Shown here piece after piece: positions 30,099 to 38,522 of a DNA stretch of 64,000 bases. This DNA is from an uncultured Methylomirabilota bacterium. Its GTDB lineage: Bacteria; Methylomirabilota; Methylomirabilia; Methylomirabilales; 2-02-FULL-66-22. Within the stretch, counting starts at the first letter, position 1; every line of letters starts with the position of its first letter. The DNA lies in contig CAWJSJ010000002.1 in assembly GCA_963845565.1 (NCBI GenBank), forward strand, positions 1,120,001 through 1,184,000. Reading direction: 5' to 3'. The notes under the pieces are model-generated. The model was given only the letters and a program-made list of their open reading frames with translations, was not told where the DNA came from and did no database searches. The position numbers were made by a program, and so were the translations under genes.

Positions 30099-30253
30099 CA
30101 GGCTTCTGAAAAAGGCCCATCTACGGCGTTGCGCACTCGCGCGGCGCTGCGACGTACGCGCTAAGTACGCCTCGCACCACGCATCGCGCGCCGCCTTGTA
30201 TCTGGGCCTTTTTGAGCAGCCTGAGCAAAAATGAGTTTGTCAGTATCCTGCTA
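30096..30253. mobile_element. MITE-like non-autonomous element with nested inverted repeats
   Basis: CAGGCTTCTGAAAAAGGCCC (30099) pairs 18/20 with 30204-30223. A second outer end at 30236-30253 matches 14/18. Flanked by CTA/TA. Confidence 0.65.
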
Positions 30254-30286: not shown

Positions 30287-31291
30287 ATGAAACTGCCGGA
30301 TCGGATGCGATATATCGAGACCGCCGGGTCGGGGGATCCCGACGTCCTGCGCGTGGCCACGGGTCCGGTCCCCCAGCCGAAACCTGACGAGGTCCTGATC
30401 CGCGTGCTGGCGGCGGGCGTCAACCGTCCCGATGTCATGCAGCGGAAGGGCGTGTACCCGCCGCCGCCCAACGCCAGTCCGGTCATCGGCCTGGAAGTGG
30501 CAGGGGAGGTGGTCGCGGCAGGCCGGGAGGTCGCGGGAGTCAAGATCGGGGAACGCGTGTGCGCGCTGACGAACGGGGGCGGCTACGCGGAGTACTGCGT
30601 CGCCCCGGCGCCGCAATGCCTGCCGTGGCCGGCCGGGTACGACGCGTTGAGATCGGCCGCGCTGCCGGAGACGTACTTCACCGTCTGGGCGAACCTCTTC
30701 ATGATGGGTCGCCTCACCCGCGGCGAGTCCGTCCTCGTGCACGGAGGGACCAGCGGCATCGGCGTGACCGCGATTCAGCTCGCGCGGGAATTCGGGTGCA
30801 CGGTGTACGCGACCGCGGGCAGCCGGGAGAAGTGCCAGGCATGCGTGCGACTGGGCGCCGCGGCCGCGATCGCATACCGCGACGAGGATTTCGCGGAGCG
30901 TATCCGGGAGATCACGAAGGGTCGGGGCGTGGATGTGGTCCTGGACATCGTCGGTGCGCCCTACACGATGCGGAACCTCGAGTGCCTCCGGATGGACGGA
31001 CGCTTGGTCCAGGTGGCCGTGATGCACGGGGCCAAGGTGGACGGGTTCGACTTGTTCCTCGTGATGCGAAAGCGGCTCACGATCGCCGGCTCCACCATGC
31101 GGCCCCGGACCACGACGGAGAAGGGGCTCATCGCCAAGGCGTTGCGCGAGACGGTCTGGCCTGTCCTGGACGCGGGCCGGTGCGCCCCCGTCATCCACAA
31201 GGTATTCCCCCTGGCCGAAGCGGCCGCCGCCCACCGGCTGATGGAGACCAGCGCGCACATCGGCAAAATCCTGCTGAAGGTGGCCGACTGA
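30287..31291 (+). CDS. NAD(P)H-quinone oxidoreductase, PIG3/zeta-crystallin family
   Basis: AGVNRPDVMQRKGVYPPP, GLEVAG, PETYFTVWANL, HGGTSGIG, GSTMRPR, HIGKI. Confidence 0.92.
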   Translation: MKLPDRMRYIETAGSGDPDVLRVATGPVPQPKPDEVLIRVLAAGVNRPDVMQRKGVYPPPPNASPVIGLEVAGEVVAAGREVAGVKIGERVCALTNGGGYAEYCVAPAPQCLPWPAGYDALRSAALPETYFTVWANLFMMGRLTRGESVLVHGGTSGIGVTAIQLAREFGCTVYATAGSREKCQACVRLGAAAAIAYRDEDFAERIREITKGRGVDVVLDIVGAPYTMRNLECLRMDGRLVQVAVMHGAKVDGFDLFLVMRKRLTIAGSTMRPRTTTEKGLIAKALRETVWPVLDAGRCAPVIHKVFPLAEAAAAHRLMETSAHIGKILLKVAD

Positions 31292-31327
31292 GACCCGAGC
31301 CTAAAGGTGACTGAAGGCTCGATGGGT

Positions 31328-31480
31328 ATTCCGGGGACACCATGCTGACTTGAGGACCGGATCGGGGGGTGAAACCATGGCGCACATTGCCCGGGTGGCC
31401 GCCCCCGGCATCACACACCACACCAACCGGCGGGGGGCCGACGGCCTGGCAGCGGGAATGAGTATGGTGTCCCCGAATTC
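31328..31480 (+). mobile_element. RAYT-derived mini-element, copy 1
   Basis: TIRs ATTCCGGGGACACCATGCT / AGTATGGTGTCCCCGAAT; internal ATG-MAHIARVAAPGITHHTNRRG. Confidence 0.75.
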
Positions 31481-31562
31481 GGGCCGAAAAGCTGTTCGAT
31501 AAATTTCCCGGGGCCAAGATAGGAAGGAACGAGAGGAGTAGTGTCCACCTCTATTAATTCCG

Positions 31563-31591
31563 TTGACGTATATGTACGTTATGCATATACT
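31563..31591 (+). promoter_or_regulatory. sigma70 promoter with operator palindrome for brnTA (leaderless)
   Basis: TTGACG-17-TATACT with only 5 nt before the ATG; inverted repeat GTATATG...CATATAC at 31568-31590. Confidence 0.75.
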
Positions 31592-31596
31592 GTTCA

Positions 31597-31863
31597 ATGC
31601 GCTTCCAATTTGATCCAACGAAGGCAGCGAATAACCTCAGGAAGCACGGCGTGTCGTTTGCCGATGCCGAAGGCGTGTTCCTCGATCCGTTCGCGATACA
31701 CCGAGAAGATCCCGACGCCGAAGGCGAAAAGCGATTCGTCGCTGTCGGGTTGGGAAGTGCTGGGCAATCGCTCGTGGTTGTGTACGCGCTTCGCGACGAT
31801 GAGATCCGAGTGATTTCTGCGCGCCGTGCCACACGGCGAGAAGTGAGGGATTATGAAGGCTGA
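31597..31863 (+). CDS. brnT: BrnT family toxin
   Basis: MRFQFDPTKAANNLRKHGVSFADA...GEKRF...VVVY...IRVISARRAT. Confidence 0.9.
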   Translation: MRFQFDPTKAANNLRKHGVSFADAEGVFLDPFAIHREDPDAEGEKRFVAVGLGSAGQSLVVVYALRDDEIRVISARRATRREVRDYEG

Positions 31864-32155
31864 GTACGACTTCTCGAAAGGCAAGCGCGGCGCGCTGCTC
31901 TCCGCAGGGGGCAAGACGCGGATTACGATATACATCGACAATGCAATTCTTGACGAATTCCGTGCTCGTGCCGAGAAGGCGGGGACGGGCTACCAGACCA
32001 TGATGAACGACGCACTCAAGGCCTACGTGACTGGCAAGGCGGGGGAAGCGCTCACGGAATCTACCTTGCGACGAATCATCCGTGAAGTGATTCCGGCGCG
32101 TGCAAGATCGGTTCAGCGTTCGGTCGCGCGGAGCGCCAAGCGCCGCGTGGCGTAG
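31853..32155 (+). CDS. brnA: BrnA family antitoxin
   Basis: MKAEYDFSKGKRG...KTRITIYID...GYQTMMNDAL; overlaps brnT. Confidence 0.9.
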   Translation: MKAEYDFSKGKRGALLSAGGKTRITIYIDNAILDEFRARAEKAGTGYQTMMNDALKAYVTGKAGEALTESTLRRIIREVIPARARSVQRSVARSAKRRVA

Positions 32156-32184
32156 CCAGGTACGGGGAGGCGCAGGACTCCCGT

Positions 32185-32344
32185 TTTCCGGGAACACCAT
32201 GCGGATTTGAGGAGCGAACCGAGGGGGCTGCTGAAGCCATGGCGCGCATTGCCCGGGTGGTCGCCCCCGGCTTCTCGCACCACATCACGCAGCGGGGGAA
32301 CCAGCGGCACGACAGCGGAAATAAGTATGGTGTCCCCCGAATTC
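32185..32344 (+). mobile_element. RAYT-derived mini-element, copy 2
   Basis: TIRs TTTCCGGGAACACCATGC / AGTATGGTGTCCCCCGAAT; internal MARIARVVAPGFSHHITQRGNQR. Confidence 0.78.
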
Positions 32345-32439
32345 TTGAGCTTGGTCGTTTGCCTAAACGACGGAACCGCCTTTGCACATGGCGCCCAACT
32401 GTGGTAGAAATCCGTCATGACACGAGGAGCTATCAAGCC

Positions 32440-32664
32440 ATGACCAGATCGCAAGCCCTGCTGGAGGAAGTCGAGTCACTGCCTATTGACGAGCGCTTGA
32501 TGCTGGTTGACCAACTTCTTCGCTCTCTTCACGGCACCGGATCCGGAAATGATCGTAAGTGGTTGGCAGAGGCCAACAAGCGACTGCGCGATGTCAAAGC
32601 CGGCCGGGTCAAGACAATTCCTGGACGCGAAGTTCTCGCCGAGGCGAGGCGTCGTCTCAAGTGA
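32440..32664 (+). CDS. Putative addiction-module antitoxin (TIGR02574-like)
   Basis: SLPIDERLMLVDQLLRSL...WLAEANKRLRDVKAGRVKTIPGREV; RBS GAGGAG; GTGA overlap with the toxin. Confidence 0.82.
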   Translation: MTRSQALLEEVESLPIDERLMLVDQLLRSLHGTGSGNDRKWLAEANKRLRDVKAGRVKTIPGREVLAEARRRLK

Positions 32665-32957
32665 GGCGGTTTGACTTCCATCCAGAGGCAAAAGCCGAAT
32701 ACCTCGCCTCCATTGCCTACTATGACGACGAAAACATCGGTCTCGGGGCGGCGTTTGCGCAAGAAGTTGAAGATGCCATCCAGTTGATTCTCTCCTACCC
32801 TTCAGCATGGCCGACTATGGGCGGCGACGTGCGGCGGTGTATGCTCGGAAGATTTCCTTACGGGATCATCTACACCACATTCGACGAGCGCATTTTGATC
32901 ATAGCGGTCGCCCATGCAAAACGGGCACCCGGTTACTGGCAATCTCGGCAGAAATGA
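32661..32957 (+). CDS. RelE/ParE family toxin
   Basis: FHPEAKAEY...YY...GLGAAF...RRCMLGRFPYGIIY...IIAVAHAKRAPGYW. Confidence 0.88.
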   Translation: MRRFDFHPEAKAEYLASIAYYDDENIGLGAAFAQEVEDAIQLILSYPSAWPTMGGDVRRCMLGRFPYGIIYTTFDERILIIAVAHAKRAPGYWQSRQK

Positions 32958-32960
32958 AGA

Positions 32961-33031
32961 GGCGAACAACGCCATACACACGTATGGCGAGCCTGCGGCG
33001 GGTTCGCAAATCATGATGGCCGATGTTGGTC
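32961..33031 (+). other. Integron attC recombination site
   Basis: R'' GGCGAAC 3 nt after the toxin stop; GCCAT(A)CA pairs with TGATGGC leaving one extra base; central GCGAGCCTG/CGGGTTCGC stem; R' GTTGGTC. Confidence 0.7.
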
Positions 33032-33047
33032 CCCTCACCGCCTGCGT

Positions 33048-33193
33048 ATTCCAGGGATACCATACTGATTTGAGGAGCGAACCGGGGGCTGCTGAAGCCA
33101 TGGTGCGCATCGCTCCCCGCATCCCGCGCCACATCGTCCAGCGGGGAGACCGGCGGCACGGCAGCGGAAATGAGTGTGGCGTCCCCGGAATTC
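33048..33193 (+). mobile_element. RAYT-derived mini-element, copy 3
   Basis: TIRs ATTCCAGGGATACCATACT / AGTGTGGCGTCCCCGGAAT; internal MVRIAPRIPRHIVQRGDRR. Confidence 0.75.
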
Positions 33194-33601
33194 CAGGGGG
33201 CGAAGACGGAAAGAAACGAAAGAAGCTGGGTCCCCTAATATTCCCGCACGATCACGGCTAGACAGGCTGCCCCGGTGGCTTGGCTTCACCTTCAGCCTCC
33301 ACGCGACAAAAATGCCTTCGATCCAGGGCCCAGGTTCGCCCCGCTTGGGGAGCCAAGCCAGACTCGAGCTGTGCGCCTTTCCGGGTAAATAGAACGCGGG
33401 GCGCAGATACCTTTGTGGACTTCCCCGCCAATCCCCCATCCAAGATTCGCGCTGTTCAGACTCCTATCCGTTCGCTCAGTCTCAGGTGCCTACGCCACGA
33501 TACACTGGTGAGGCTAAGTCCTCGAAAACTGGGCCACCCGAATCTGGCCTGCTGGCTGCATCACCGTAGGGACAGCCGGATAGGCGGAAATGGAGGCTCT
33601 C

Positions 33602-33859
33602 ATGCGAACCATCGTGGTGTTGCTGATCGCGGCTCTCGTCCTGACCCCGACCCTGGCCCATGCGCAAGCGTCCGGGGCGGGCGGGTTGGGGCTCTTGGCC
33701 CTCGTGGCCCTCCCGGTGCTGGTGATCCTGCTCCTGGTCGAACTCGAAAAGAAAAACCCGAACTGGAGGGACGAAGCGACACGATCTCCGCTGCCGAGTC
33801 CGCCGTCCGAATCGCAGTCCTCGACCGCCCCGGTCCCGGCGGGTGGGAGCGGTCGCTGA
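33602..33859 (+). CDS. Small hypothetical membrane protein (signal peptide + TM + Pro/Ser tail)
   Basis: RBS GGAGG; MRTIVVLLIAALVLTPTLAHA signal followed by a hydrophobic segment. Confidence 0.5.
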   Translation: MRTIVVLLIAALVLTPTLAHAQASGAGGLGLLALVALPVLVILLLVELEKKNPNWRDEATRSPLPSPPSESQSSTAPVPAGGSGR

Positions 33860-34208
33860 GCCGAACTCTGGCTGTCCGGTTGGTGGTCGTCCTCGCAAGG
33901 CTGAAACATAGCCTCCCGCACGCATTTCGTAGCCGCCCCTGTCTTGATCTAGCGAGGGTGTTTGAGATTGACGACGCGCGAGCTTTTCGATACGTTTGCT
34001 CTCACGAACGTCTCGCCTTGGTTCCTACTTTGCTTCAGAGGGTGTTGTGGGGAAACCATATAACATCCCGACCGGCTCAGTGTTCTTCTCTCACCCGTTA
34101 ATCCTTCGATACTCGCTCCAATTCTGCGCATGGGGTGCTATGCGGACCCGATGCCGGAAAAAACCGTGTATGCGGAAACCGTAATGGCGTAGTTTGGATG
34201 GACAGGTG

Positions 34209-34814
34209 ATGCGAAGCCGGTTCAGTGACACCAACAGCTCGCAGGGGCCGAAGTATCTCTTCGAGTTCGCCCAGCGGGTTCTCGTCGAATGCCCGGGCTG
34301 TGGGCAATGCGCGGTTGTGGAATGCAAACGCGGGCTCGAGGGGACGCCTCGCCTCTCGTGCCCCCGTTGCTCCTTCACTACGCGAGGCTGGCCACCACCC
34401 TCGAATCTAGAGATGCGACGGTGCGCGCGCCGTCGCTGTGCCCGGTGCAACGACTGGCTGGGCAGGGCCCCCGTGCGTTTCCTGATGGGAAAGCGTGTTG
34501 TCGAGATTCTCTGCAGCTGTGGCGCGGTGTCGTTCGAACCTTGGCCGCGTGCCGCAATGCGCCTTGGAGAATCAACTGATCCATATTTCGGGCTGCCGCT
34601 TTGGCTGCGCACCGACGTGCGTGGCGAGACCCTGTGGGCGTACAACCGCGAGCATCTGTCCTTCCTCGACGCGTACGTGCGAGCGGCCCTGCGTCAGCGT
34701 GCGCCAAACTGGAATGCAAGCCTGACTAGTCGCCTCCCGCGCTGGATGAAGACCGCTTCCAGACGACAGGACGTGTTGAAAGCAATCGCGCGCATCGCCG
34801 CTCGAAAAGGCTAG
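34209..34814 (+). CDS. Hypothetical zinc-ribbon protein (cassette-like)
   Basis: Several CxxC pairs; DPYFGLPLWL...LWAYNREHL...SRLPRWMK; followed by an attC-like site. Confidence 0.7.
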   Translation: MRSRFSDTNSSQGPKYLFEFAQRVLVECPGCGQCAVVECKRGLEGTPRLSCPRCSFTTRGWPPPSNLEMRRCARRRCARCNDWLGRAPVRFLMGKRVVEILCSCGAVSFEPWPRAAMRLGESTDPYFGLPLWLRTDVRGETLWAYNREHLSFLDAYVRAALRQRAPNWNASLTSRLPRWMKTASRRQDVLKAIARIAARKG

Positions 34815-34850
34815 CAGTTCATGACCTTTAGCAAATAGGGAAAGAACGCC

Positions 34851-34938
34851 GCTCAACGTACCGTTGCGGCAGACGATTTTATCGGTCGGGCCTCCGCCCT
34901 CCCTCTGGCGTTCGCCGCTAACGCTAAACGCGTTAGGC
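34851..34938 (+). other. Integron attC recombination site
   Basis: R'' GCTCAAC, L'' GTTGCGGC, L' GCCGCTAAC, R' GTTAGGC. Confidence 0.7.
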
Positions 34939-35080
34939 AACCCGGAGCGACGGTGTGTTTATGCGGCGTCACCCAAGTACGACCGGCCCGCGTCGCCTTT
35001 GCAACGGCGTAGTGAAATGCGTCCCCGCGGGGATCCGTGAAAGGCGGAGCTCCGAAGCCGCGAGGCGAAGAATGCCAAGA

Positions 35081-35971
35081 ATGCCGATGGACAAGTTTAG
35101 CAGGCTCATCGCAGCCCACGCTTTCGCCCGATTTCCGGAGTGGCGGCAACGCGTTCGCCGGGTTCCGTCCTCCGATGGGACCGTCGCTTTACTCCTGGAA
35201 CTTCCGGCACCAGCAGAAGCCCGGGTCGAGTGCGGTCTCTCGCTCAGCACCGAGGATCGCGAAATCACCATCTCCTTCGCCGCCTGGCATGAGCACCTGC
35301 AGGGAACGCGGCGGCACGAACGGCGTCCCGGGTCGCCGGAGGACAGGGCTCGCGCCGCCTGGCAGAGCGCGGAACAGTTCCTGGATGACCTCTGCGCCGA
35401 ACGGACAGTCGTTGCGTCGTGGTGGTTCGAGTCCCACTGGCGGAGCAGCCGGTGTGCGCCGGCGGGCTCGCCCCTGGAGGAGCCGGATCACTCCTACAGC
35501 AATCGCCGGCGCGTGCGGTCTTGGAAAGGCACGTTCAACGAAGACGTCCGAACCGACACCTTCGATACTATCGCACGGTTGCCCTGCCCGAGCTGTGGAG
35601 AGATCGACGGCGCACGGTGCGGGCAAGCCGTGAGGGGCACCCGCCGGTTCTGGTTCCGGGTCACGCGTTGCCCAGCGTGTGGGGCCGCGACCGAAGGGGA
35701 TGGCGGTCACTGCGCGCCGGAGGACCTGCGCCAACGCCTCCTGGCTGCCGAGGGGACCTGGGCTCCTGTGCTCAACGAGCCGGTGGATGACGAGTCCCGG
35801 GTCGTGCGCCTGGTGCGGAGGGTGCTCCTCATCGGGCAAGCGGAGGCCTTGGCCTTCGTTCGCGGAACAGCGGACGACCAGGTCCGCGGCACGCGCGCTG
35901 AGGGTGCGTGGGCCGTGGCACAGCTTGCGAGCGTAGGGCTTCGCGCGACAACCCGCCGGATTGACGCTTGA
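35081..35971 (+). CDS. Hypothetical protein, apparently two-domain (C-terminal half has CxxC pairs); start uncertain
   Basis: Open frame after the attC; first half ends RVRSWKGTFNED, second half has CPSC/CPAC and GTRAE. Confidence 0.55.
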   Translation: MPMDKFSRLIAAHAFARFPEWRQRVRRVPSSDGTVALLLELPAPAEARVECGLSLSTEDREITISFAAWHEHLQGTRRHERRPGSPEDRARAAWQSAEQFLDDLCAERTVVASWWFESHWRSSRCAPAGSPLEEPDHSYSNRRRVRSWKGTFNEDVRTDTFDTIARLPCPSCGEIDGARCGQAVRGTRRFWFRVTRCPACGAATEGDGGHCAPEDLRQRLLAAEGTWAPVLNEPVDDESRVVRLVRRVLLIGQAEALAFVRGTADDQVRGTRAEGAWAVAQLASVGLRATTRRIDA

Positions 35972-36271
35972 CTCGGTCCATCATGTCCGGTGTATTGGCG
36001 CCGGGGACTTATCCATCCAGGAGCCTCTGTTTCGCCCGGCTTGGGGAGCCACGTCGGACTCGAACGCGCAGCAACAAGATTCCGTGTGGTGAATTTGCCA
36101 CCGTGTTCTAGTCGCGCCCATTTTTCGACCTGGTCGCATCGCGCAACTCTCTGTCAATACTCGCGAAGACGTGATCGTAACCATAACTCGGGTTCGAATC
36201 CCGATCGCTACGCGCTTGGGAGCTAGAGTTTCCGCCCGCCGGGTTCCCCGTTCCGGGCCCAGCATGATCTC

Positions 36272-36688
36272 TCAGTCCACCTGGTGCGCGGTGAGGAACA
36301 TGGCCTTTTCCAGGGCGGCGAAGAAGCGCTGGTAGGCCTCGGGGTCTTCGACCGGCGACATCTGTTGCTGGGCGTTGGCACGGACGACGACCTGCCCCGT
36401 GCCGCGCGGGGAAACGGTGACCGTCATCGTCAGGCCGGACTTGCTCGCCTTCACGACTCCCAGCGTCGCATCGGCTTTATCCACCCAGAATCCGAGGTCC
36501 GACAGGGTGGCGATGACGTCGCGAAGGGTTCGCTCCCGGTCGGCGGTATCCATGACCCGGGTCTGAATGCTGCGGGCGCGGAGCGTTTCCGTCTTGCTGT
36601 CCAGGACTCGTTCGTTCAGCCCGGCGCAGCCTGCGGCCAGGAGGCCGAGGGATATCCACAGTCCGACAACCGCGAATCTGGTCTTCAT
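36272..36688 (-). CDS. Hypothetical lipoprotein
   Basis: Lipobox LAAGC; RSIQTRVMDT...YQRFFAALEKAMFL. Confidence 0.75.
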   Translation of the reverse strand: MKTRFAVVGLWISLGLLAAGCAGLNERVLDSKTETLRARSIQTRVMDTADRERTLRDVIATLSDLGFWVDKADATLGVVKASKSGLTMTVTVSPRGTGQVVVRANAQQQMSPVEDPEAYQRFFAALEKAMFLTAHQVD

Positions 36689-37260
36689 GATTCCCGAGCC
36701 TCCAAGGCGAGGGCCTTCGAGAGCCGATCGAAGGCCTCCTGGTAGACAGTGGCGTCCGCGATGATGTGCGGCGGACCGGGTCGGCCATCCGTGTGGCCGG
36801 TCTCTCGAAAGATGATTCGGACGGCGATGCGGTCTCCGTCCACGCCGATCTTTCGTGTGAAGACGCCCACCTCAATCCTCACCGGTTTGGCCTGGATCTT
36901 ATCGACGAGAAGCAAGGCCAACGGCGCCGTGTAGCCCCCTGCCAGGAGGCCCAAAGCGGCCGCGCCGACCGCAACCCGCTGCCCAGGCGTGAGCGAGTTC
37001 GCATCGCGCATCTTGGACCCCAGCACCACTCCCAGGCGGGAGGTCCCCTCATCGATCTGGAATCCCATGTCCTGGAGGAGGGCTGTGCAGGTCATCAGGA
37101 TCCGCTCCTCGTCCGCGGACTCGTAGTGCCTGGTCTGGAGCTGGCGCTGTGCCAGCATGTCCTCCGGCGACGTCAGCATCTGCGAGGCCGGGGCGGCACA
37201 TCCGGTCAGGAGGAGCAGTCCCAGAAGGATGGGAGCCGACTTGATAGGGTGCCGTGCCAT
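36685..37260 (-). CDS. Hypothetical lipoprotein, paralogous to 36272-36688
   Basis: Lipobox LLTGC; RQLQTRHYE...LQDMGFQID...YQEAFDRLSKAL. Confidence 0.75.
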   Translation of the reverse strand: MARHPIKSAPILLGLLLLTGCAAPASQMLTSPEDMLAQRQLQTRHYESADEERILMTCTALLQDMGFQIDEGTSRLGVVLGSKMRDANSLTPGQRVAVGAAALGLLAGGYTAPLALLLVDKIQAKPVRIEVGVFTRKIGVDGDRIAVRIIFRETGHTDGRPGPPHIIADATVYQEAFDRLSKALALEARES

Positions 37261-37271
37261 GGCCGCTTCCC

Positions 37272-37685
37272 TCAGAAGCGCGACGCGTGGTACGCGTAGT
37301 CGCGCACTCGTTTGTCGGCGTCAAACTTCACGATCACCGTGAGCGTCCGCTGGCTGACCGTGGCAGCACCCGCCTGCCGCGCATATCCCACCAGCACCAG
37401 TCCGGCGTACCCGGACTCATCCAGATACGCGCGCTCGGTCGCGATCCGGTCGTAGATCCAGACCTCGCGCCTCTGTTCGTCCGTGGTCACGATGTTGGGG
37501 GCGCCGAGCACCTCGGCCACGGCCGCCGCCGTCATACCTTTCTGGATCTCCCGCTGGACTGTTCCTACGGTCAGTCGCTTTTCGCCGATTTCCGACGGTG
37601 GCGTCACGATCTGCTGGTTCACACTGCACGCCGAGAGCGCCAGCATCGCCGCCCCGCCGATCAACCCGACCCCGAATGCTCGCAT
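37272..37685 (-). CDS. SmpA/OmlA (BamE)-like lipoprotein
   Basis: Lipobox LSAC; IQKGMTAAAVAEVLGAPN...WIYD...LTVIVKFD. Confidence 0.7.
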   Translation of the reverse strand: MRAFGVGLIGGAAMLALSACSVNQQIVTPPSEIGEKRLTVGTVQREIQKGMTAAAVAEVLGAPNIVTTDEQRREVWIYDRIATERAYLDESGYAGLVLVGYARQAGAATVSQRTLTVIVKFDADKRVRDYAYHASRF

Positions 37686-38108
37686 GATATTTCCTCCGTC
37701 TTGACCCAGGTGTTTTTCCCTGCCTGACACGCACCCACGCCTAGCGAGTTCCGTGCCTACGGACGGACGAGGGTGTCGGCGGCGCACGGTGGGAATCATC
37801 CCAGGGATTCCGAAGGGTTACGCAATGCTGGGGCGCACTGCTCGGCAGCGCCTGTCAATCGGGCTGGACGGGGGGATGGCGTGGTGTCGAGGCGTCAAGG
37901 CGGAGAGAACCGGTGACAGACTTCCTGGGAGAAACTCAGACCGGGCGGCGAGGTTGCGGGTATGGATCAGCCGGATCGGCCTTCGAGTCCGTACTGCTTT
38001 TCATCTTGTTGTAGTGCGGGGCCCGCTGATTGATGCTGAGAGCCCCGGCGGCCTGAGTCCGGCCGGCGCCAGAGCGTCCCATGCGTCACAAAACGGCAAC
38101 GACGAGGC

Positions 38109-38146
38109 TTGAAAGCCTTTAGGGTACTGTGTATTATTCATACACA
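38109..38146 (+). promoter_or_regulatory. vapBC promoter/operator
   Basis: TTGAAA-17-TATTAT overlapped by the palindrome TGTGTAT-N5-ATACACA. Confidence 0.6.
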
Positions 38147-38161
38147 CGATGGAGGGACATC

Positions 38162-38353
38162 ATGCGGACGAATGTGGTGATTGACGACACGCTCATGTCT
38201 CGAGCACTCAAGTCCGGCGGATATCGCACCAAGCGGTCCGTCATCGAGGAAGGGTTGCGGTTGCTCGTGCATGTGAACAGCCAGAGGAAGCTTCGCAATC
38301 TGAAGGGCACGATCCGTTGGGAGGGCGATCTGGACTCGATGCGGAGGGACTGA
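38162..38353 (+). CDS. vapB: VapB family antitoxin
   Basis: MRTNVVIDDTLM...TKRSVIEEGLRLL...WEGDLDSMR. Confidence 0.88.
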   Translation: MRTNVVIDDTLMSRALKSGGYRTKRSVIEEGLRLLVHVNSQRKLRNLKGTIRWEGDLDSMRRD

Positions 38354-38354
38354 C

Positions 38355-38522
38355 ATGATTGTTGTCGATTCCTCGGCGTGGATCGGGTATTTCACGGATG
38401 GGCAACCGCTGATCGTCAGCAAGGTAGACCGGTGCCTCGAACAGGACTTGGTGGGAATTGGAGATCTGATCTACAGGGATTTCGATGTCATGGCTCCCCA
38501 CATCGGGTTGCGAATCGTGTAG
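38355..38522 (+). pseudogene. vapC: VapC (PIN) toxin with a large in-frame internal deletion
   Basis: 55 aa: N-terminal MIVVDSSAWIGYF...IGDLIY joined directly to C-terminal RDFDVMAPHIGL. Confidence 0.8.

Follow-up and report, generated by a model that had tools for sequence, protein, structure and literature searches.

Transposase-gene relics punctuate a strain-variable toxin-antitoxin array in an uncultured Methylomirabilota bacterium

A contig of an uncultured Methylomirabilota bacterium (CAWJSJ010000002.1, positions 1,120,001 to 1,184,000; these 64,000 nucleotides are called the window below) carries three short repeats, M1, M2 and M3, that alternate with toxin-antitoxin (TA) modules downstream of an NAD(P)H quinone oxidoreductase-type gene (qor). 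The repeats (hereafter "minis") are internally deleted TIRtrons, that is, remnants of a Y1-HUH transposase gene flanked by terminal inverted repeats (TIRs) that belongs to Group 1, or subclass 2.1, of the REP-associated tyrosine transposases (RAYTs). With moderate confidence, the locus is interpreted as a strain-variable TA array punctuated by these relics, which were likely duplicated in trans, together with flanking DNA, by a TIRtron enzyme (TIRYT) and would now act mainly as joints for homologous recombination. Direct support is available for the deletion origin of the minis, for cargo turnover that starts at the right TIR, for mosaic minis, for an excess of TA modules nearby, and for the admixture of an integron layer. 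In what follows, the genome containing the window (5.36 Mb) is designated G000; other G-numbers denote genomes, L-numbers fetched loci, and C-numbers contigs.

Structure and parentage of the mini-elements

M1, M2 and M3 share one orientation, are each ~150 bp long, and are mutually 81–84% identical over aligned columns; when the 5.36-Mb genome is searched with a profile built from them, these copies reach E values between 2e-50 and 4e-42, far above chance. Three such co-oriented elements had been proposed in a preliminary description of this DNA, and all three are borne out. They lie to the right of qor, which serves as the anchor gene for comparisons among strains.

30287–31291, + strand: NAD(P)H quinone oxidoreductase-type gene (qor; Pfam ADH_zinc_N), conserved left anchor of the variable array
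31327–31480, + strand: mini-TIRtron M1; left TIR core 31333–31346, ATG 31377, stop 31459–31461, right TIR core 31461–31474
32184–32344, + strand: mini-TIRtron M2; TIR cores starting at 32190 (left) and 32324 (right), ATG 32239, stop 32322–32324; mosaic among near-identical strains
33047–33193, + strand: mini-TIRtron M3; TIR cores starting at 33053 (left) and 33173 (right), ATG 33100, stop 33171–33173; subtype with a 12-bp deletion

The TIR core in intact relatives and minis is GGGGACACCATACT. Inverted repeats had been proposed at the ends of all three elements, and cores were located in each, although the left TIR of M2 and both TIRs of M3 are degenerate; they are TIRs rather than repetitive extragenic palindromes (REPs). 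Each mini retains both TIRs, ~22 N-terminal codons, and the last codons of the gene with its stop, the interior of M1 consisting of N-terminal codons followed by the C-terminal stop. In DNA alignments, the minis match full-length elements over ~120 bp at the start and ~25–50 bp at the end. Their 3′ part encodes the C-terminal end of the transposase (..ARQRK-stop), and its stop overlaps the right TIR, just as it does in the intact elements L027 and L020; the peptide GSGN(K/E)(Y/C)GVP, previously taken as a conserved junction, was read in the wrong frame. The expected resemblance of the internal peptide to RAYTs holds for M2, which scores 33 bits (model positions 1–24) against a hidden Markov model of 11 cognate proteins, whereas M1 reaches 12.6 bits, M3 gives no match to this model, and no NCBIfam model was matched by the 33-residue mini peptide alone. 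A decay series in genome G006, running from full-length pseudogenes through ~460-bp to ~200-bp deleted forms, shows that the minis arose by deletion.

Intact genes for Y1-HUH proteins of ~220 residues, bounded by the TIR of the minis, exist in relatives (L027, L020 and others), as had been anticipated. The L027 protein (220 residues) contains NHVHII and YIELNP motifs and matches PF01797 (E 4e-14); it scores 73.9 bits against NF047646, under the cut-off of 80, and the best solved relative of the 220-residue protein is TnpA-REP (4ER8; E 7e-6). No Pfam match to a C-terminal helix-turn-helix extension, a feature of subclass 2.1, was found in the 220-residue protein, weak C-terminal sigma70-ECF and LeuO-like matches being confined to longer Y1 proteins. 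TIRs matching GGGGWSAS lie near both gene ends in L027, L020 and others, and such TIRs define TIRtrons and their TIRYTs (PMC3733652), which correspond to subclass 2.1, or Group 1 RAYTs, and are without REPs (PMC6006769, PMC5581495). REPtron parentage, as first suggested, can be rejected, since the TIR fits GGGGWSAS and is not GTAG-footed and REPs are absent; the broader idea of descent from a RAYT-like Y1-HUH gene stands. Published TIRtrons resemble the present elements in having Y1-HUH enzymes of ~220 residues with NHVH and YIELNP motifs (Di Nocera 2013, PMC3733652; Quentin 2018, PMC6006769; Bertels 2017, PMC5581495) and GGGGWSAS TIRs that also occur singly, as dimers and in clusters, again without REPs; the parts of these papers that are available describe neither deletion-derived minis that keep the gene ends, nor TA association, nor cargo turnover. 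Subclass 2.1 is recorded in 14.9% of species (PMC6006769).

A profile search of G000 returned five minis and five lone TIRs. The minis beyond M1–M3 reside at C2:369505-369655, just upstream of a Phd-RelE module, and at C5:659400, the latter a shorter copy. Full-length copies of the mini family occur in four other genomes of the genus, and a metagenome scan yielded 24 loci carrying it; the M3 subtype with its 12-bp deletion recurs in L111, L133 and G004:C137.

Strain variation downstream of qor

Orthologs of qor are found in 8 of the 20 other genomes of the genus, and two contigs in the comparison end too early for a call. Downstream of qor, G000, L112/113, L121, L127 and L130 share the order M1-brnTA-M2-parDE-M3, as far as the contigs reach. 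Elsewhere, the site is occupied by M1-brnTA-higA(HI1420)-M3 (L111), by a mini, parDE and a higBA remnant (L118), by a mini, AbiEi/AbiEii, a second mini, a 340-bp divergent qor 3′ piece and a third mini (L123/L133), by a mini with an Rv0078B antitoxin and a truncated nucleotidyltransferase gene, then VapBC (G009), or by a truncated mini and other DNA (L117); no mini is present at the qor site in G004 and three more distant genomes. A mini occupies the site of M1 in G009, L111, L118 and L123/L133, and five different sequences begin directly past the right TIR of the first mini (brnTA, parDE, AbiEii/AbiEi, Rv0078B/nucleotidyltransferase, and another). Because the genes that differ among strains start exactly at the end of a relic, the relics are likely joints for the swapping of small addictive genes. 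Orthologous sites thus differ in cargo whose ends lie at the repeat, as predicted in the preliminary description, with exceptions at breakpoints outside the TIRs.

In two Nitrospirota genomes (L072 and L097), a TIRtron and a mini are each 91% identical, versus 69–74% for the flanks; the cargo that they enclose is unrelated, and homology breaks at both TIR ends. The high identity could reflect either recent exchange or strong constraint. At another site, where L043 was compared with G000:C2:816-820 kb, G009 has a mini without a right TIR in place of an RpiR-like regulator gene of G000, and a HigA-like gene at the position of a lone TIR of G000; minis here coincide with local deletions or replacements.

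The copies at the qor site seem to be related by local descent, as indicated by a shared left-end signature: TATT/TTTT in all 14 qor-site copies examined, versus AATT/AAAT in 12 dispersed copies. A copy in G004, where a mini is joined to a higA 3′ piece in a different setting, bears both this array signature and the M3 deletion, and in L133 a qor fragment plus mini is placed exactly at the right end of another mini. M2 is a mosaic, in that 13 of its 160 columns differ between G000 and L112, compared with 4 of 1,768 in the neighbouring DNA (Fisher p 1e-11); eight of the 13 variant states are found in other minis, and L130 carries a third allele (8/12). The allele difference is not an assembly artefact, because the alleles recur in independent runs, the L112 type in three and the G000 type in one of those. 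For several of the strain differences no HUH enzyme need be invoked, as ordinary recombination between minis of like orientation accounts for them.

Cargo modules, integron layer and TA neighbourhoods

One TA operon lies between consecutive minis, as the preliminary description stated and as Pfam matches to BrnT and BrnA (M1 to M2) and to Unstab_antitox and ParE (M2 to M3) confirm. The intervals and their borders contain the following features.

31505–31561, + strand: probable right end left over from a second TIRtron family, with basic C-terminal codons, a stop and a degenerate TIR of the GTCC type, as inferred from sequence
31563–31591, + strand: sigma-70-type promoter match (10/12) of the brnTA module, by sequence match
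31597–31863, + strand: brnT toxin (PF04365, E 6e-28)
31853–32155, + strand: brnA antitoxin (PF14384, E 1e-10)
32345–32357, + strand: presumed 3′ stub of an attC-like site that preceded the cassette and is truncated where M2 ends on the right; an identical stub is present in L118
32358–33025, + strand: integron-type cassette (antitoxin plus parE), from the G|TT point at 32357/8 to that at 33025/6
32440–32664, + strand: addiction-module antitoxin (Unstab_antitox; PF09720, E 2e-12)
32661–32957, + strand: parE toxin (PF05016, E 1e-7)
32961–33031, + strand: attC of the parDE cassette, degenerate here and intact in L118 (the bottom-strand fold has z -2.2 in the window and z -3.9 in L118)
33194–33245, + strand: probable right-end remnant of the second TIRtron family, inferred from sequence

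Homology to the brnTA module of genome G039 begins at 31563, the first nucleotide of the promoter match, and this cargo is predicted to bring its own promoter. The minis themselves contain no promoter match and can be dismissed as cargo promoters, since brnTA carries its own. The two probable remnants of a second family resemble each other by eye; a BLAST search with 31505–31561 gave no intact-element match, and 33194–33245 weakly matches (E 0.19) the TIR of a 348-residue Y1 gene at C2:558 kb. An open frame of 67 codons leads from the M2 transposase ATG into the antitoxin (window 32239–32664) and is intact in all five strains checked, including L118; this is possibly chance, or possibly an N-terminal extension.

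The second cargo is an integron cassette of the ordinary kind and carries an attC of its own, a point that the preliminary description missed. The segment at 32345–32357 is taken to be attC-like by its agreement with the attC motif, and attC boxes are named here in the usual way (R″ and so on). The parDE cassette starts at a G|TT 13 bp past M2, its start box is complementary to the R″ box of the attC in L118, and homology between G000 and L118 stops at the attC G|TT. The higBA module, too, ends in an attC, and in L111 it is truncated by M3; no attC was seen by eye for brnTA in the window. The array has no intI with attI beside it, the only full integron integrase gene (L155; G000:C2:1646488-1647432, 483 bits) being located 495 kb away. 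Near this integrase are MNT-HEPN and nucleotidyltransferase genes; a long array of cassettes is not obvious within the 20 kb inspected. The earlier proposal that the minis delimit cargo in the manner of attC sites is not sustained: because parDE has its own attC and some turnover takes place at attC/attI-type GTT points, the minis are not attC equivalents.

The expected enrichment of TA genes beside the elements was found. In the mini family of M1–M3, a Pfam TA gene occurs within 800 bp at 6 of 16 distinct sites (44 of 68 candidate open reading frames (ORFs) scanned), with a lone helix-turn-helix gene at two more. Among loci chosen by TIR pattern, 9 of 28 have TA families within 800 bp, three of the nine with the nucleotidyltransferase half only (the scan took in 47 of 61 ORFs and one that was added); the set comprises 30 loci fetched from 67 matches, less the locus of G000 itself and the qor site of G009. 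Six of seven full-length cognate elements have TA genes as neighbours. For comparison, 0.9% of G000 lies within 500 bp of a TA module and 1.5% within 1 kb. TA genes adjoin four of the five minis of G000 (two of three sites), versus none of its five lone TIRs. Conversely, the 41 hits of eight Pfam TA families in G000 constitute 36 modules, of which three lie beside minis and 33 have neither mini nor TIR. No TIRs accompany the brnTA homologs (in 3 of 250 genomes of the class) or the Phd-RelE homologs (in five genomes of the genus), which rules out an obligate link between cargo and TIR; the parDE DNA has no match in 250 genomes.

The TIR pattern is present in 24 of 251 genomes of the phylum, while a reversed control gave none. 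Across all phyla, 3 of 30 TIR pairs (32 less two duplicates; 43 of 64 nearby ORFs scanned) have a Pfam TA gene nearby and 27 do not; most of these pairs sit between ordinary genes in the manner of REPINs (paired REPs) and have unrelated interiors. An identical 14-bp core is shared by Desulfobacterota, Nitrospirota, Chloroflexota, Actinomycetota, Elusimicrobiota, Omnitrophota and others (L069–L100), where the TIRs form REPIN-like dimers and tandem runs, a widespread and little-described repeat family. Other mini families with the identical TIR form mini-gene-mini or TIR-gene-TIR arrays (L202 (G006:C70) 144-1525, L182, L076, L081 and L186), with a PIN-like gene, MNT-HEPN, Smr and orphan genes as cargo. 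ORF6N-domain genes repeatedly adjoin lone TIRs or minis (L201, L006, L122), L201 having two with one TIR between them, and a gene for a pPIWI-associating nuclease (PF18165; L120:51-884) lies upstream of a mini-bearing array.

Further to the right, the variable island (window 33590–38522) contains orphan genes, three lipoprotein-like genes, VapB with a truncated VapC, an attC-like end near 34853–34940, and a 33-bp repeat at 33335/36031; in G009, ~2 kb of different DNA takes the place of this part. Between an aminotransferase gene and qor lies a long imperfect inverted repeat with 26-bp arms (30099–30223) that many unrelated contigs match, and a separate family of ~160-bp repeats has dozens of copies (82–91%) in G000.

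Alternative explanations and implications

Under the favoured reading, a TIRYT would nick single-stranded DNA at the outer ends of the TIRs and rejoin it, such that a variable length of upstream DNA travels with the mini. This step is modelled on what is proposed for TnpA-REP of E. coli, which cleaves and strand-transfers single-stranded DNA near its repeats and may sequester flanking genes (PMC3333891). The qor piece plus mini of L133 and the higA piece plus mini of G004 would be examples, landing often taking place at the right end of another mini. Recombination of co-oriented minis would then delete or exchange the interval (L118; the M2 mosaics), IntI may have supplied or moved some of the pieces (the parDE and higBA cassettes), and TA modules would dominate since the loss of an addictive module is counter-selected, rather than via targeting.

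Several points weigh against this reading. Some breakpoints lie away from TIRs (G000/L118 at the attC G|TT; L111 at 8 bp past the brnA stop), and at L120/L124, a second mini-bearing site, the cargo switches at a GTT ~370 bp from the mini. Junctions at the element's own ends are to be expected of any insertion, and recombination between repeats is sufficient to bring new cargo next to a right TIR. Accessory hot spots attract TA modules and mobile ends independently, and the TA counts include kin that are not independent, set against a baseline of one genome and eight Pfam families. Transposition as a unit finds no support, because no clean empty site or target duplication was found among 27 minis compared with G000 and fetched loci; no circles or skip joints at minis were seen in eight runs, an uninformative result given that these were fragmented contigs only, five runs in part.

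The enzyme itself also seems to have decayed. Its gene in G000 is a truncated remnant (C2:785677-786245), and the cognate protein is matched (E<=1e-40) in 14 of 66 genomes of the order and 1 of 20 within the genus, this sole open frame having lost its HUH and Tyr motifs. A search with the cognate protein found no catalytically intact enzyme in G000 or 20 other genomes of the genus. Four PF01797 genes are present in G000, one apparently frameshifted and three with intact motifs; they are 323–348 residues long and have different TIRs. With the cognate enzyme broken in this lineage, the array is therefore probably semi-fossil.

It is possible, though the less expected outcome, that the locus is a passive hot spot, in which a decayed, CALIN-like cluster of integron cassettes and a pile of TA genes, made by IntI and other mobile elements, received TIRtron-derived insertions, RecA acting between copies did the remainder, and the HUH enzyme never carried cargo. 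The attC-bearing parDE and higBA cassettes, the full integrase gene, and the turnover at GTT points in L120/L124 agree with this, as do the TA modules of G000 without minis, the brnTA and Phd-RelE homologs without TIRs, the 27 of 30 TIR pairs without a Pfam TA gene among the scanned ORFs, and the accumulation of other TIRtron families at the same spots. It accounts less readily for the co-orientation and private left-end signature of the array copies, for the relocated qor and higA fragments with their minis, for cargo bounded by TIR ends on both sides in L072/L097, and for a brnTA module that shows no attC here and an integrase that is 495 kb distant.

More ambitious, and rather doubtful, is the proposition that TIR-associated HUH transposases, which occur in many phyla, form a capture system: they would join foreign DNA to TIR ends and duplicate a TIR-bounded mini around each piece, so that TA and defence genes are assembled into arrays resembling integrons or CRISPR loci without a tyrosine recombinase. 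The likeness to CRISPR adaptation is one of general analogy. That TIRtrons are dedicated gene-capture platforms, whether as the HUH-driven cassette system of the preliminary description or in a CRISPR-like version, is unlikely; a TIRYT would have to nick both inverted TIRs on opposite strands, foreign 3′-OH ends would attack the phosphotyrosine links, and fill-in would duplicate the mini. Single cargoes per interval, the L072/L097 junctions, truncated and arbitrary cargo ends (attC stubs, gene fragments), a core invariant over many phyla around unrelated interiors, recurrent mini-gene-mini arrays (L076, L081, L202), and the TA neighbours of six of seven full-length elements would all fit. Set against these are the lack of an intact cognate enzyme among 21 genomes of the genus, the degenerate TIRs of M2 and M3, an array order that is constant in four contigs 94–99% identical, and the REPIN-like placement of most TIR pairs between housekeeping genes. 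Furthermore, no TA genes were seen by eye at nine full-length Y1 loci that are related but have different TIR variants, and no intermediates were seen in the contigs of the eight runs.

Some IS1111 elements and group II introns target attC hairpins, and attC stubs adjoin TIR ends at M2, L111, G004, L047 and L097; it is nevertheless very improbable that TIRtrons are located in cassette arrays through such targeting, given that a GTT box occurs within 40 bp outside the TIR at 10 of 153 non-redundant ends, versus 7–13 in four farther bins, and the strict motif at 5 versus 0–7, which amounts to no enrichment.

Known systems share parts of this arrangement. Miniature inverted-repeat transposable elements (MITEs) are short non-autonomous TIR elements that arise by internal deletion, and pairs of them may bracket cargo, as in MITE-flanked composite elements. 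The minis are alike in origin and in forming several dispersed non-coding TIR copies (five in G000), whereas their parent is an HUH rather than a DDE transposase and no target duplication was found. One-ended transduction by IS91/ISCR moves variable flanking DNA with an HUH enzyme (Y2, with ori and ter), and in Acinetobacter pdif modules repeated Xer sites bracket TA modules; here, the enzyme is of the Y1 type with TIRs, presumably without Xer sites. Like integron arrays and clusters of attC sites lacking integrases (CALINs), the locus has tandem, co-oriented, TA-rich and strain-variable small genes, parDE being such a cassette and intI being present in the genome; it differs in that the repeat is a TIR-bounded gene relic rather than attC, the integrase is not adjacent, and brnTA shows no attC here. 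REPtrons, REPINs and bacterial interspersed mosaic elements with TnpA-REP likewise involve an HUH enzyme and inverted repeats that are paired and non-autonomous; they too amplify locally, and capture of flanking genes has been proposed for them (PMC3333891), whereas the present units have no GTAG-foot hairpin, are few (five minis), and derive from the transposase gene itself.

A literature search returned no description of TIRtron-derived minis with TA cargo, with the proviso that the supplements of PMC3733652, PMC6006769 and PMC5581495 may list similar elements; the available part of PMC13617665 contains nothing on RAYTs or MITEs. The arrangement is apparently undescribed and built from known parts, a TIRtron variant rather than a demonstrated new cassette system. 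The preliminary description had named outcomes that would speak against it, namely no RAYT match, no intact relative, and no cargo turnover; what emerged instead was support for a Y1-HUH origin, intact relatives, TA-enriched neighbours and cargo turnover.

Group 1 RAYTs, or TIRYTs, are among the commonest relatives of HUH transposases and are not known to have an activity or role; the available literature states their function as open (PMC3733652, PMC6006769, PMC5581495). The present locus and its relatives tie TIR ends to strain-level TA turnover, and the invariant 14-bp core and the intact 220-residue enzymes provide a testable substrate. Even on a modest reading, transposase relics serving as recombination joints, combined with integron cassettes, would offer a novel route to variable TA arrays. 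Should it prove true that the enzyme captures DNA at TIRs, it would represent a novel class of system for acquiring genes, and the array hints at a possible gene-collecting role for the TIRYT/Group 1 RAYT enzymes.

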